Shown here one piece after another: positions 1 through 4,768 of a stretch of DNA of 4,768 nt (positions are counted from its first letter, which is position 1; each line of letters begins with the position of its first letter). Origin of the DNA: Escherichia coli (GTDB lineage Bacteria; Pseudomonadota; Gammaproteobacteria; Enterobacterales; Enterobacteriaceae). The stretch lies in the NCBI RefSeq assembly GCF_003334255.1, contig NZ_QOWU01000107.1. One strand, written 5' to 3'. The notes below the pieces were generated by a model, which did no database searches, was not told the DNA's origin, and saw only the letters and a program-made list of their open reading frames with translations. Both the position numbers and the translations under genes were made by a program.

Positions 1-180
1 CACGCCTGAAGGGAAAGCTGCACGTTATCAGCAAGCGTTACACTCAGCGCATTGAGCGACATAATCTGAATCTGAGACAACATCTGGCAAGGCTGGGACG
101 GAAGTTACTGTCGTTCTCAAAATCGGTGGAGTTGCATGACAAGGTCATCGGGCATTATCTGAACATAAAACACTATCAGT
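1..180 (+). CDS. insB: IS1 transposase InsB, C-terminal fragment (5' end outside window)
   Basis: Open frame from nt 3 to TAA at 178-180 (59 codons), near-identical to the recalled IS1 InsB C-terminus. Two residues differ from the canonical copy as I recall it (KLL for KSL, KVIG for KIIG), suggesting an IS1 iso-form. Confidence 0.85.
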
Positions 181-197
181 AAGTTGGAGTCATTACC
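175..197. repeat. IS1 terminal inverted repeat (right end)
   Basis: 23-bp sequence atcagtaagttggagtcattacc matches the IS1 IR consensus. Confidence 0.85.
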
Positions 198-267
198 TCC
201 TCCCGAACTCAAAGCTATCATACAGATAATTACTGGTTAACCCTATATAGGGCATTTTAAAGTGTTG

Positions 268-633
268 TGATCTTACCCAGCAATAGTGGACACGCGGCTA
301 AGTGAGTAAACTCTCAGTCAGAGGTGACTCACAAGACAAAACAGTTTCAACCAGTAAAAAAACGTAAACACCATTCGCATGAATTTCGTAGTTAAGATCT
401 GAAGCTTGCAGAATGCATCGGTATTACTGCCGGAGTCCGTGAACTTAGTCTGCATGAATCACCACAGCTTTACATCTGTCGCAGTAAACAGCAAAATCAG
501 CAAACTTACTTAATTATATCGAGTGCGATTACAATCGCTGGCGATGGTACAGTTGGTGTGGCGGTCTCAGTCCGGAACAATTTGAAAATCAGAATCTCAC
601 TTAAAACGGCATCCATTTTACAAAAGATGGCCG
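268..633 (+). mobile_element. IS3-like (IS3 family, IS3 group) remnant with a large internal deletion: left IR plus degenerate orfA 5' part joined to orfB 3' end plus degenerate right IR
   Basis: Sequence from 268 (tgatcttacccagcaatagtggacacgcggctaagtgagtaaactctcagtcagaggtgactcac) matches the recalled IS3 left end. Downstream sequence is diverged orfA-like coding (..KQQNQQ). At about 505-512 it switches to sequence encoding [31 protein letters not shown] (509-604), compared with IS3 InsF C-terminus [31 protein letters not shown]. The right IR region (about 596-633) is recognisable but degenerate. Confidence 0.75.
333..604 (+). pseudogene. Degenerate IS3-like transposase remnant: orfA 5' fragment (start codon ATG replaced by AAG, frameshifts, in-frame TAA) fused by deletion to the last 32 codons of orfB
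   Basis: AAG at 333-335 sits where IS3 orfA has ATG. Translation tracks IS3 OrfA (TKTVSTSKK.., [18 protein letters not shown]) only with indels and a stop. The orfB tail frame is intact from 509 to TAA at 602-604. Confidence 0.7.
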
Positions 634-893
634 TCTGTGTATTTGTAATGAATACCTTCTACATGTTTAGAGTGCATAATCCACGACAAGGCGATATCCT
701 AAAAATTAGCTAGCAGGCAACTTTGATGGCATAGATAATGTTTTTAGTAAAAAAGAGTTGACTGAATATAATACAGCCTCTTCCTACATAAGAAGGAATG
801 TGCTCACAAAAAAAAACCATTAGTCTGCTTCCTGTTCTTACAATAATCAGTATTATGTATTTTATTTATATAGCAAAATATGCTTGTTACACC

Positions 894-902
894 TGTCATA
901 AT
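894..902 (+). promoter_or_regulatory. Candidate extended -10 promoter element (TGtCATAAT) upstream of the small ORF
   Basis: TG at 894-895 lies one base upstream of hexamer CATAAT at 897-902, about 42 bp upstream of ATG 944. No convincing -35 was found, consistent with an extended -10 promoter. A purine-rich Shine-Dalgarno GGGGGAGA lies at 933-940. Confidence 0.25.
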
Positions 903-943
903 TAGGCATGGTAAAATTATTGACTGAACCCTGGGGGAGAAAG

Positions 944-1201
944 ATGCACAGTGATTATTATAATATGGTTTTTGGTGAAAAATTGGCCAATATTTTATAT
1001 GAAGCTAACTCTCAATTTTTTTACGAGAGAAATGTCATAGAAGAGGCAGTCAACGCTTTATTCTGTGAGCGTGAAATAATAAACAACAAGAACATAATAA
1101 AGAAGCTGATGTTCTTTTTGTCAGATGTTAATCACACCAAGAAAGATGTTGTTCAGAGCGCACTTAATATTATCATTGACATTACATCAGGTGATATTTG
1201 A
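944..1201 (+). CDS. Hypothetical small acidic protein (85 aa), AT-rich, no family recognised
   Basis: The ORF runs 908-1201 in the track. I favour ATG 944 (MHSDYYNMVFGEKLANILYEANSQ...) because GGAG at 936-939 sits 4 nt upstream, whereas ATG 908 has only AGG at 1-nt spacing. The sequence is strongly AT-biased with asparagine/isoleucine/lysine-rich codon usage typical of horizontally acquired DNA. Confidence 0.45.
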   Translation: MHSDYYNMVFGEKLANILYEANSQFFYERNVIEEAVNALFCEREIINNKNIIKKLMFFLSDVNHTKKDVVQSALNIIIDITSGDI

Positions 1202-1478
1202 GATTTTACATAAAGGATAATCTCTCAAGGAGTCTTATCTGAAAACGAAATATATAGTCCCTCTCGTTTTGTAATATCGATTGGCTTTGTTGAATCGGTT
1301 ACGTACCCCGGAGCCGGTCATATTTTCAGGTAATACACACGCTTTCAGACATTTCGGCTTTCGTCATTTTGGTATCATGGGCATAGCTTCTGCTACCTGA
1401 CCATCATAATCACGCAGCTTCAGTGAAGCAGTGACCACCTGTTTAACCCGGTGTATCGTTATGATCTTATCCAGCAAT

Positions 1479-1669
1479 TGAACCGCCCCGGGTTTCCTGG
1501 AGAGTGTTTTATCTGTGAACTCAGGCTGCCAGATCATCGTTTCCGATGGAAGCATAATAAGCTTTTTCTGCTTCTGCCGGTGGGATATGGCCCTGCCTTT
1601 CCAGCAATCGTCGATTGTTATACCAGTCCACCCACGTGAGTGTGGTCAGCTCATCATACTGACACGTGC
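1479..1669 (-). mobile_element. IS629/IS1203-like (IS3 family, IS51 group) right-end remnant: terminal IR plus 3' end of orfB, truncated on the other side
   Basis: The plus strand from 1479 reads TGAACCGCCCCGGGTTTCCTGGAGAGTGTTTTATCTGTGAACTC, which matches the recalled IS629-type terminal repeat. The minus strand from 1669 to 1521 encodes ..YDELTTLTWVDWYNNRRLLERQGHIPPAEAEKAYYASIGNDDLAA*, an rve/DDE integrase-core C-terminus typical of this group. No upstream transposase sequence is recognisable beyond about 1669. Confidence 0.7.
1521..1669 (-). pseudogene. IS3-family (IS629-like) transposase OrfB, C-terminal 49-codon fragment
   Basis: Minus-strand frame is open from 1669 to TGA (complement of 1521-1523). 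It carries the WxxWYNxxRxxxxxGxxPPxExE..YY motif of IS3-family integrase cores. There is no start codon and it is truncated at the 5' side. Confidence 0.65.
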
Positions 1670-1800
1670 ATTACCCCTACCGCGATAATGCAACCGTACA
1701 ATATAGGGCGTTTCCTAAACGCAGCCCTCATCACTCCAATCCAACAAGACACAGCATTTTTGATCACGAAGAAAGACAAATAATTTCCGTAAATGTTTCC

Positions 1801-1818
1801 GTTGTTACAAATAACAAC
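1801..1818. promoter_or_regulatory. Candidate operator: inverted repeat GTTGTTA-caaa-TAACAAC upstream of the phytase-like gene
   Basis: Perfect 7-bp arms with a 4-bp spacer at 1801-1818, about 115 bp upstream of ATG 1934, preceded by direct repeats TTTCCGT at 1784-1790 and 1796-1802. No cognate regulator is encoded in the window. Confidence 0.25.
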
Positions 1819-1933
1819 AGTGTTTTACATTTCTTTGGCCTCAGGCCCGCGCATGTTGCCATTCGATGTCATTTTCCTGACTCGTTTCTTCTTTATGGTG
1901 TAGTGTGATCTTCACTTTATGGATGCTAACAAT

Positions 1934-3292
1934 ATGAAAAGAAAAATTATTCCCGTGCTAATCGGTTGTACGCTCTCTTTCTCTGCCCTGGCGGCACAAC
2001 CTACGGCTGAGCGCTATGTCGTCAGTTTTCCAGAAGGCACGCACGTGAACTACGCCGGCGCATTTGCCAGTGCATTCCCGAACGGCCTTCCGGTTGGGAT
2101 AGGTTCTGGCCTGCTGTTCACCGGTAAACAGGGCGATGCCCTGACATTCGCAACCATTACCGATCGCGGTCCGAACGCGGATTCACCGAAAGAGGGGAAA
2201 AACGAAACTAAAATTTTCGTTACGCCAGATTTCGCGCCGCTGCTGATGACGATTCGTGTACAAAACGGCAAAGCGGAGGCCATCGATCCCCGTCCTCTGC
2301 ATGACGATAAAGGCGCGATCAACGGTCTGCCGCTGGCAAGCGACGTGATTGGCTCCACCAATGAAGTGGCCTTCAGCGACACGTTACATAGACTGAAGGG
2401 GGATAATCGCGGGCTGGATACGGAAGGGATCACTCCGGATGGTAAAGGAGGTTACTGGCTGTGCGATGAGTATGGCCCGTTCCTGATTAACATCGACAGT
2501 AAAGGGAAAATCCTGGCAATCCACGGTCCGCAGGCGGCGGAAGGGGAAAAAGCGATTGCGGGCGGTTTGCCAAATATCCTCAAATGGCGTCAGGCGAACC
2601 GCGGCTTTGAAGGCCTCACCCGTATGCCGGACGGGCGTATTATTGTCGCCGTGCAAAGTACGCTGGATATCGACGCTAAGAGCAAGAAAAAGGCGCTGTT
2701 TACGCGTCTGGTGAGCTTCGATCCGGCAAGCGGAAAAACCGCGATGTACGGTTATCCTATCGACAGCGCGGCCTACAGCAAAAACAGCGACGCTAAAATC
2801 GGAGACATCGTGGCGCTCGATAACCAGCACATCCTGCTGATCGAACAGGGAAGAGATAAAAACAACAGAATGCGTAACCTGATTTACGAGGTCGATCTCA
2901 ATAAGGCGAGCGACCTGTCAGGCTTCGACAAGCCGGGTGAGTATCCGGAGTTTGATGATGAGAAAACCCTGTCACAGCGCGGCATTACCCTTGCGCAGAA
3001 AACGCAGGTTGTTGATCTGCGCTCCTTGGGCTGGCAGCAGGAGAAGGCTGAAGGGTTGGCGCTGATCGACAGCAAAACGCTGGCGGTGGCGAACGATAAC
3101 GACTTTGGCGTGAAGGTGGCGATGCAACATCCGGTCGAGGGCAAGACATTCAAGGATTATCGGGTGAACGCGGAAGGAAAGCTGACGCTTGACGACAAGC
3201 AGGTTGAAACGACCCTCAGAGTGAAGCCACTGGAGAAACCGGAGTCTGACAGTGAACTGTGGATTGTGACGCTGCCGGAAGCGTTGAAATAA
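1934..3292 (+). CDS. Secreted beta-propeller protein of the phytase-like / SdiA-regulated (YjiK-like) superfamily, often annotated 'esterase-like activity of phytase family protein'; 452 aa from ATG 1934
   Basis: Long ORF 1919-3292. I favour ATG 1934 because it gives a classic Sec signal peptide (MKRKIIPVLIGCTLSFSALA|AQPT) and has GGA 10 nt upstream; ATG 1919 is the in-frame alternative. Motifs GIGSGL...ITDRGPN, DTEGITPDGKGGYWLCDEYGP, NRGFEGL and NDNDFG match recalled signatures of Pfam phytase-like (PF13449) and SdiA-regulated beta-propellers. Codon usage is typical enterobacterial and GC is clearly higher than in the AT-rich segment upstream. Confidence 0.9.
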   Translation: MKRKIIPVLIGCTLSFSALAAQPTAERYVVSFPEGTHVNYAGAFASAFPNGLPVGIGSGLLFTGKQGDALTFATITDRGPNADSPKEGKNETKIFVTPDFAPLLMTIRVQNGKAEAIDPRPLHDDKGAINGLPLASDVIGSTNEVAFSDTLHRLKGDNRGLDTEGITPDGKGGYWLCDEYGPFLINIDSKGKILAIHGPQAAEGEKAIAGGLPNILKWRQANRGFEGLTRMPDGRIIVAVQSTLDIDAKSKKKALFTRLVSFDPASGKTAMYGYPIDSAAYSKNSDAKIGDIVALDNQHILLIEQGRDKNNRMRNLIYEVDLNKASDLSGFDKPGEYPEFDDEKTLSQRGITLAQKTQVVDLRSLGWQQEKAEGLALIDSKTLAVANDNDFGVKVAMQHPVEGKTFKDYRVNAEGKLTLDDKQVETTLRVKPLEKPESDSELWIVTLPEALK

Positions 3293-3530
3293 GTTTATAA
3301 GGTACGGACAGCAGTATCGCTTAGTTTTTCAAATTCATGTATGTGAACAATATTGGGGTTCCGGCGTAGACCCCCAATGAAAGCGTCACCACGTGAAAAC
3401 ATGCCTGCACGGTTTACACGTCATCCCATGGTGGCAGCCGGTTAACTTTCCTGCTACACCAGTGGAAAAAGGCCATAAGCAGTCCGAACAAAAGTAAGCG
3501 TACAGCGAGGGCCGTATTGACGGGGATGTG

Positions 3531-4768
3531 TTATTCAGCTGGCAGTGCTATGCGCCACGGAAGCAGTTCGCTGACCCGGTTGACCGGCCAGTCTGCTATG
3601 ACGCCAAGCACATGGCGAAGGTAGCTTTCTGGATCCACGTCATTCAGTTTGCACGTCCCGATCAGGCTGTACAGTAGCGCTCCCCGCTCACCACCATGGC
3701 CAGAGCCGAAGAACAGGGTCTTCATCTTTTCACGCAACCAGCTTTCCAGGGATTTCAACAGCGGTTTCGTTTTTCGCTGACGTTCAGCAAGCCGCTGCTA
3801 TGCCGGCATTCCCCTTATATCCGCCTCTATGGCGTACAACTGACCGATCTGCTCCAGGGCTTCTTCCGTCAGTGCTGACGGGATGCGGACGTGCATATCG
3901 TGGATCTTTCGGCGGGCATGAGCCCAGCAGGCAGCTTCCGTTATCCCACCATTGCGATACAGCTCGTTGAACCCGGCGTACGCATCCGCTTGCAGCACAC
4001 CGCTGAAGCAAGCAAGATGAGTCTGCGGATGGATGCCTTTTCTGTCCGGGCTGTAAGCGAACCTCACTGCAGGTGCCAACGCTGACCCGGCATTGCGGTC
4101 ATCACGAACATACGCCCACAACCGCCCGGTCTTCGTCTTCTTATTACCCGGCAGCAGTACCTGGACCGGGGTATCATCGGCATGGAGTTTGCCGTCAGTC
4201 ATGACATCGCCATGAAGCGCCTCTTCCAGCGGAGACAGCAGCCGGCAGCATGCATCCACCCAGCCCGACAGCAGTGAACGGCTCAGCTCCACACCTTGCC
4301 GGTCGTATATTTCTGACTGGCGATACAGCGGGGTGTGCTCTGCATACTTCGAGGTCAGCACGCGGGCCAGCAGCCCCGGTCCGGCGATACCCCGCTCGAT
4401 GGGCCGCGAAGGTGCAGGTGCCTGCACGATGGCATCGCACTGAGTACAGGCATGTTTTTCCCGTACCGTCCGGATAACCCGGAAGGCGCTACGCATCAAC
4501 TCCAGCTGTTCGGCGGTATCCTCGCCCAGATAGCTCAGTGAACCGCCGCAGTTCGGGCAGCACGGCGCCGCAGGCAACAGCCGCTTTTCGTCACGGGGTA
4601 GTGATTCAGGGAACGGCTTACGGGGGCGGGTCTGACGCAACGGACGCTGTACTGCCGGGTCATACACCCTACCAGTCAGCGTATCGCTCTCTATCGCTCT
4701 CTTTCTGAAGCCGGTTCAGATCGGCTTCCATTTGTGCGATACGGCGGGAGACTTTTTCGGAACGACTG
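3531..4768 (-). pseudogene. tnpC: IS66-family transposase (TnpC/orf3) pseudogene: N-terminal frameshift from a 10-bp tandem duplication, in-frame TAG, and a probable in-frame internal deletion
   Basis: Minus-strand ORF 4667-3798 (..[39 protein letters not shown]..) ends at TAG (complement of 3798-3800). The same frame continues [71 protein letters not shown] to 3531. Upstream of 4667 the conserved N-terminal sequence (..[25 protein letters not shown]) is in a different frame, offset by the duplication at 4682-4701. Confidence 0.85.
4682..4701. repeat. Perfect 10-bp tandem direct duplication (tatcgctctc x2) inside the IS66 transposase 5' region
   Basis: Read directly: 4682-4691 and 4692-4701 are identical. 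The unit is not a multiple of 3, so it shifts the frame. Removing one copy joins ..LQKESD to [17 protein letters not shown].. in one frame. Confidence 0.9.

Follow-up and report, generated by a model that had tools for sequence, protein, structure and literature searches.

The closest described relative of the element considered here is ISEc8, an insertion sequence of the IS66 family with intact copies on E. coli plasmids and O157:H7 chromosomes. Our reference was the plasmid copy in NZ_CP058876 (locus L004), a complete ISEc8 of 2442 bp with intact tnpA and tnpB and a 512-aa tnpC, which RefSeq annotates as ‘IS66-like element ISEc8 family’. Its inverted repeats start GTAAGCGTACAGC, and the 8-bp target duplication ATTTCTGC is found on both sides of it. 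Two ISEc8 matches from O157:H7 (L002 and L003) were dropped as intact references because they are partial copies. In a relative with an intact TnpC, Pfam recognizes LZ_Tnp_IS66, zf-IS66, DDE_Tnp_IS66 and DDE_Tnp_IS66_C. A second comparison is offered by a chromosomal allele that has lost 153 bp of tnpC yet is annotated as intact (WP_000998019.1 and WP_014966184.1), and a third by the IS pseudogenes of Enterobacteriaceae in general, which share with the present locus stepwise inactivation at one fixed site under relaxed constraint and differ from it in nothing of note. E. coli genomes hold many dead IS copies, which limits the importance of any single one.

The window (the whole 4768-bp stretch of E. 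coli DNA that was analyzed) ends within such a copy. Positions 3494-4768, on the minus strand, are the tnpC end of a degenerate ISEc8: homology to the reference begins at the IS end, position 3494, and besides the indels the two copies are about 99% identical (98.8-99.6% over aligned blocks), differing by a dozen substitutions and three lesions. Measured in locus L013, where the full window is present at 100% identity, the whole element occupies 3494-5792 on the minus strand and runs past the window end; its 2299 bp correspond to the 2442 bp of intact ISEc8 less a 153-bp deletion and plus a 10-bp duplication. The terminal inverted repeat at the tnpC end lies at 3494-3515 and has a perfect 13-bp core, GTAAGCGTACAGC, within an imperfect match of about 22 bp when compared with the opposite element ends in L001, L004 and L013. 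The window holds only this repeat, and the same GTAAGCGTACAGC stands at both element ends in L001 and L013, as it does in the intact NZ_CP058876 copy.

The tnpC pseudogene covers 3531-4768 (minus strand), with its natural stop at 3531-3533 and its first 158 nt outside the window, up to coordinate 4926. In genomes identical to the window, intact tnpB and tnpA lie directly upstream of tnpC, preserving the tnpA-tnpB-tnpC organization; in L013 the TnpB protein is identical to that of reference ISEc8 and TnpA differs by one residue. The initial annotation had recommended looking beyond the window for exactly these parts, and tnpA, tnpB and the opposite inverted repeat all proved to be intact. Its assignment of the gene to the IS66-family transposases is borne out by the NCBIfam IS66 transposase model (NF033517.1), which scores 355.8 bits against the read-through translation of tnpC, with a cut-off of 180.

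We propose that this chromosomal ISEc8 copy is non-autonomous and decaying, its tnpC having been inactivated in three successive steps, and we put the probability of this reading at roughly 0.93. We found nothing in this analysis that contradicts a pseudogene. The pseudogene status is already part of the public record, as RefSeq describes tnpC in E110019 and S88 as ‘IS66 family transposase; frameshifted; internal stop’, and the locus is in this sense a routine, ordinary dead IS copy. The window copy has no uninterrupted tnpC with all of the conserved DDE residues (D247, D311 and E438 in ISEc8 numbering).

The largest of the three lesions is a 153-bp in-frame deletion with its junction at 3713-3717, located by alignment and junction analysis against NZ_CP058876. 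It removes 51 codons, S402 to L452 of intact TnpC, with the sequence SRHSELAKAFAYALNQWPALTYYANDGWVEIDNNIAENALRAVSLGRKNFL (51 aa; SRHS…EIDNNIAENALR…GRKNFL), and fuses KMKTL to the downstream block at the Leu codon 3714-3716. In the intact form a 5-bp direct repeat brackets the deleted segment; the short form keeps one copy, and the position of the junction is ambiguous within this microhomology (ACAGG on the plus strand, CCTGT on the coding strand). A loss of about 45 residues including an IDNN motif had been suspected after KMKTL. The alignment to intact ISEc8 upholds the in-frame loss, the motif and the junction, and corrects the size to 51.

The other two lesions are smaller. A 10-bp tandem duplication at 4682-4701 (TATCGCTCTC twice, where intact ISEc8 has one copy) shifts the frame after codon ~75, and it accounts for the N-terminal frameshift noted in the initial annotation: in the translations the N-terminal part of tnpC lies in a different frame from the remainder. 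The in-frame TAG at 3798-3800 (minus strand) arose from GAG (Glu373) by a single C>A change on the plus strand at 3800. Minus-strand translation of 4766-3531 agrees with the earlier description of this codon as a stop within a continuing frame, since past the TAG the tnpC frame runs on to the natural stop at 3531-3533. Every other copy examined, whether deletion-bearing or intact, has GAG at codon 373. Recoding of the TAG was considered and set aside on argument, given that the gene is frameshifted upstream and that the ancestral codon is a plain GAG.

What the deletion removed can be judged from conservation. Pfam places DDE_Tnp_IS66 at residues 175-461 of intact TnpC, and the deletion of residues 402-452 thus falls within the catalytic domain. 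A search of 1.84 billion representative proteins yielded 104 full-length matches, 32-51% identical to ISEc8 TnpC, which were aligned with it. Not one of these 104 full-length IS66-family transposases lacks the deleted segment, and the comparison with intact homologues called for earlier therefore finds the residues after KMKTL missing here and present in all of them. The near-invariant acidic residues of the alignment include D247 (100%), D311 (99%) and E438 (98%), and E364 is likewise conserved in 97%. E438 belongs to the deleted EIDNN-AE-R block and is accompanied there by G447, R448 and N450 (93-98% conserved); the mean frequency of the top residue is 0.63 over the deleted block and 0.55 on average over the DDE domain. 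From the D-64-D-127-E spacing together with this conservation, E438 is likely the third catalytic residue of the DDE triad. Nothing among solved structures resembles TnpC in sequence, and a search of the accessible literature gave no published assignment of the DDE residues of IS66.

The same alignment bears on the polarity of the change. If the short form were ancestral, the 153 bp would be an insertion in what we call intact ISEc8. The segment is present, ungapped and with several near-invariant residues, in 104 of 104 diverse full-length IS66-family transposases, and a 5-bp direct repeat that flanks the segment in the long form and is single in the short one is the signature of a deletion; the probability left to an insertion is negligible.

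Under the stepwise decay that we favor, the first event would have been the in-frame loss of 153 bp between the two 5-bp direct repeats, for which replication slippage or illegitimate recombination would be a fitting cause, and which would have cost the DDE domain residues 402-452, including the EIDNN-AE-R block with E438. The 10-bp tandem duplication near codon 75, presumably also a product of slippage, would have followed and shifted the frame, and the GAG>TAG nonsense mutation at codon 373 would have come last. A gene with this history would be expected to yield no active transposase, leaving the element unable to move by itself. The initial annotation had likewise called the copy immobile in cis, which fits a tnpC with three lesions and a deleted E438 block.

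The order of these steps is read from their distribution, for which short diagnostic queries were run against 5426 complete E. coli genomes. The deletion-junction query matches over its full length in 2343 records from 2302 genomes; an estimated ~65-130 of these, judged from an evenly spaced listing, are two-piece matches to intact copies, and about 2200-2300 remain. The deletion is thus present in ~40% of complete E. coli genomes. The duplication query matches 625 records from 613 genomes, including many plasmids with a different mosaic IS66 copy, so that the window-type 10-bp duplication occurs in at most 613 of the 5426 genomes. The TAG is rarer still: a 59-mer that bears it is matched exactly in only 33 records, the other ~3900 having at least one mismatch.

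Individual genomes show the same nesting. On direct inspection, the deletion stands alone in O104:H4 2011C-3493, APEC O78, S65EC and an ST131 isolate, is joined by the duplication in strain 95-3322 (whose tnpC is annotated ‘frameshifted’), and is accompanied by both the duplication and the TAG in the window, S88 and E110019. The lesions are a nested series of independent events, in which the deletion is old and the TAG recent. This supports the earlier count of at least three independent lesions, as the nested distribution means that they arose separately. The accompanying view that the copy is old holds for the deletion, found in ~40% of complete genomes, and fails for the TAG, confined to 33 records. 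Further decay of tnpC is seen in TW10690, which has a 5' deletion, and on plasmid pB27_2, where the gene is cut beside IS1.

These counts also dispose of the idea that the TAG, the indels or both arose as errors of sequencing or assembly in a single genome, to which we give practically no weight. The whole window recurs with 100% identity in at least 10 independent complete genomes, the duplication in 613 genomes and the deletion junction in ~2200. For the TAG in particular, the exact 59-mer in 33 independent records rules out the sequencing error against which the initial annotation had cautioned.

Plasmids make up most of the full-length matches to the duplication query in an evenly spread listing. 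One of them, pSK1144 (NZ_AP018785.1), carries at 7330-8275 an IS66-family tnpC that is split by IS100 and has the same 10-bp duplication as window positions 4682-4701. Its nucleotides 215G, 293C and 336G are those of the window copy, but the 153-bp segment has not been lost and the divergence elsewhere is about 85%. The gene appears to be a mosaic and points to an exchange, by recombination or gene conversion, between a plasmid IS66 element and the pseudogene lineage of the chromosome. We considered the pSK1144 copy as an example of an element mobilized in trans and rejected it, as it still has the 153 bp and combines, in mosaic fashion, ISEc8-like stretches with more distant IS66 sequence.

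Where intact ISEc8 has an 8-bp target duplication, the degenerate copy has none, its two flanks reading GAACAAAA and CACTATTT. Abutting the IS end at 3414-3491 (minus strand, RefSeq annotation) is what remains of a DUF6404 gene, its final 25 codons, which mark a point of insertion or rearrangement. The rest of this gene does not reappear beyond the other end of the IS: when the intact DUF6404 gene of pSK1144 is used as a tblastn query, residues 91-115 alone are matched. Seen at window 3414-3493 and from 8793 onward in L013, the missing target duplication and a gene remnant without a partner on the far side together imply that one flank was rearranged after ISEc8 had inserted, by an adjacent deletion or by IS-IS recombination.

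A query across the junction of this flank with the IS (window 3464-3523) matches 2183 records from 2175 genomes. Since this is close to the deletion-junction count, nearly all deleted copies occupy one site; differences of up to a few dozen records are below the resolution of the comparison. On the IncA/C-like plasmid pB27_2 (NZ_AP027426.1, 5030-10000), copies of IS1 enclose a phytase-like gene, the DUF6404 remnant and the 3' portion of the deleted tnpC. This looks like IS1-mediated capture of chromosomal DNA, the copy having moved within a larger segment, as its chromosomal neighbors were kept between the IS1 copies.

It is on these data that an active passenger has to be weighed, that is, an element still mobilized in trans by an intact ISEc8 in the same cell, as the initial annotation had allowed. 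Such movement is structurally possible, both terminal inverted repeats being intact, and many E. coli genomes hold intact ISEc8 copies. However, we see no sign of it either in the junction counts, where ~2210-2280 deletion-junction records (two-piece matches discounted) compare with 2183 records of the single flank, or on pB27_2, where the copy kept its phytase-like gene and DUF6404 remnant between IS1 copies; the absence of an 8-bp target duplication (GAACAAAA and CACTATTT) also speaks against it. We see only a very slim chance that the element still moves in this way.

The allele with the deletion only is the form that most tests our reading of stepwise decay. It has the locus, the flank and the 153-bp deletion of the window copy, and differs in being without the 10-bp duplication and the TAG and in its annotation as intact; the window copy is 13-19 substitutions away from it per 2.3 kb and is a further decayed descendant or relative of it. 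In O104:H4, APEC O78 and ST131 the deletion-only tnpC is an open ORF of 461 aa, annotated as an intact CDS, ‘IS66 family transposase’ (WP_014966184.1 or WP_000998019.1, the latter the same accession in three different strains), and in most carriers of the allele the 461-aa ORF is open and tnpA and tnpB are intact.

The deleted TnpC might accordingly be a retained functional derivative, catalytically dead with its leucine-zipper and zinc-finger parts in place, that represses or titrates ISEc8 transposition or has been domesticated; the window copy would then be a recently broken allele of it. The uninterrupted 461-aa ORF, the intact tnpA and tnpB and the normal CDS annotation in O104:H4, APEC O78 and ST131 favor this, as do the presence of the allele in ~40% of complete E. 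coli genomes and the sharing of WP_000998019.1 by three strains. Against it, the deletion-bearing tnpC haplotypes differ by ~8 non-synonymous (including nonsense) to 3 synonymous changes, in a small sample of 6 elements, and conserved positions have been struck: R199C in deletion-only alleles replaces a residue invariant in 105 of 105 sequences, and L488P falls at a position that is always hydrophobic in the homologues. The ORF has also been broken independently several times (by the duplication, the TAG, the 5' truncation in TW10690 and the truncation on pB27_2), and the locus lies within IS debris and hitch-hikes with fec. We consider a retained derivative unlikely, with a small chance of being right. 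An equally small chance attaches to its more specific form, in which the 461-aa TnpC, with coiled-coil and zinc-finger kept and ~2200 carriers, would bind DNA ends as a natural dominant-negative that damps ISEc8 transposition, a function that the window lineage would later have lost. Some slight room is thus left for a residual, non-catalytic role of the deletion-only 461-aa protein, its ORF being open and tnpA and tnpB intact. The non-synonymous excess, R199C and L488P, and the independent truncations make tnpC in the deleted lineage look like a gene in neutral decay under relaxed constraint, with the small sample of 6 elements to be kept in mind.

There is a practical consequence for annotation. 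The deletion-only allele is named an ordinary ‘IS66 family transposase’ despite having lost a conserved block with the probable catalytic E438, and since it is annotated as intact, tallies of ‘intact’ ISEc8 transposases for E. coli genomes are too high by roughly one per carrier genome.

The setting of the locus may explain its persistence. Several complete E. coli chromosomes, e.g., E110019, G6/7, ETEC1732 and LR-21-1, match all 4768 bp of the window at 100%. In E110019 the region lies directly downstream of fecABCDE-fecIR, as an island adjoining fec with the gene order IS1F, IS3 and IS5 fragments, a YmgB/AriR-family gene, an ‘esterase-like activity of phytase’ gene, the DUF6404 remnant and the IS66-family tnpC-tnpB-tnpA. 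We hypothesize that the degenerate ISEc8 persists by virtue of this widely shared island beside fecIRABCDE and not by function. The nested lesions, from deletion through duplication to TAG, are handy lineage markers for the island.

The identical window is carried by strains of differing pathotypes and hosts, among them the atypical EPEC E110019, the porcine ETEC1732, human isolates and a frigatebird isolate. The deletion-bearing ISEc8 element as such exists in at least 3 haplotypes, 9-19 substitutions apart per 2.3 kb. A window that is identical across pathotypes and hosts while the haplotypes of the element differ suggests that the fec-adjoining island passes horizontally between lineages.

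In the remainder of the window, positions 1-1660 are IS debris around an apparently intact YmgB/AriR-family gene (908/920-1201); by the RefSeq annotation of matching genomes this debris comprises the end of an IS1F (1-~183), an IS3-family fragment (~500-605), an IS5/IS1182 fragment (~1326-1456) and a second IS3 fragment (~1521-1652). Between the debris and the ISEc8 remnant, at 1934-3292, lies an intact 452-aa gene of the ‘esterase-like activity of phytase family’ with a signal-peptide-like N-terminus, whose protein, WP_000823243.1, is common to S88, APEC O78, ST131 and E110019.
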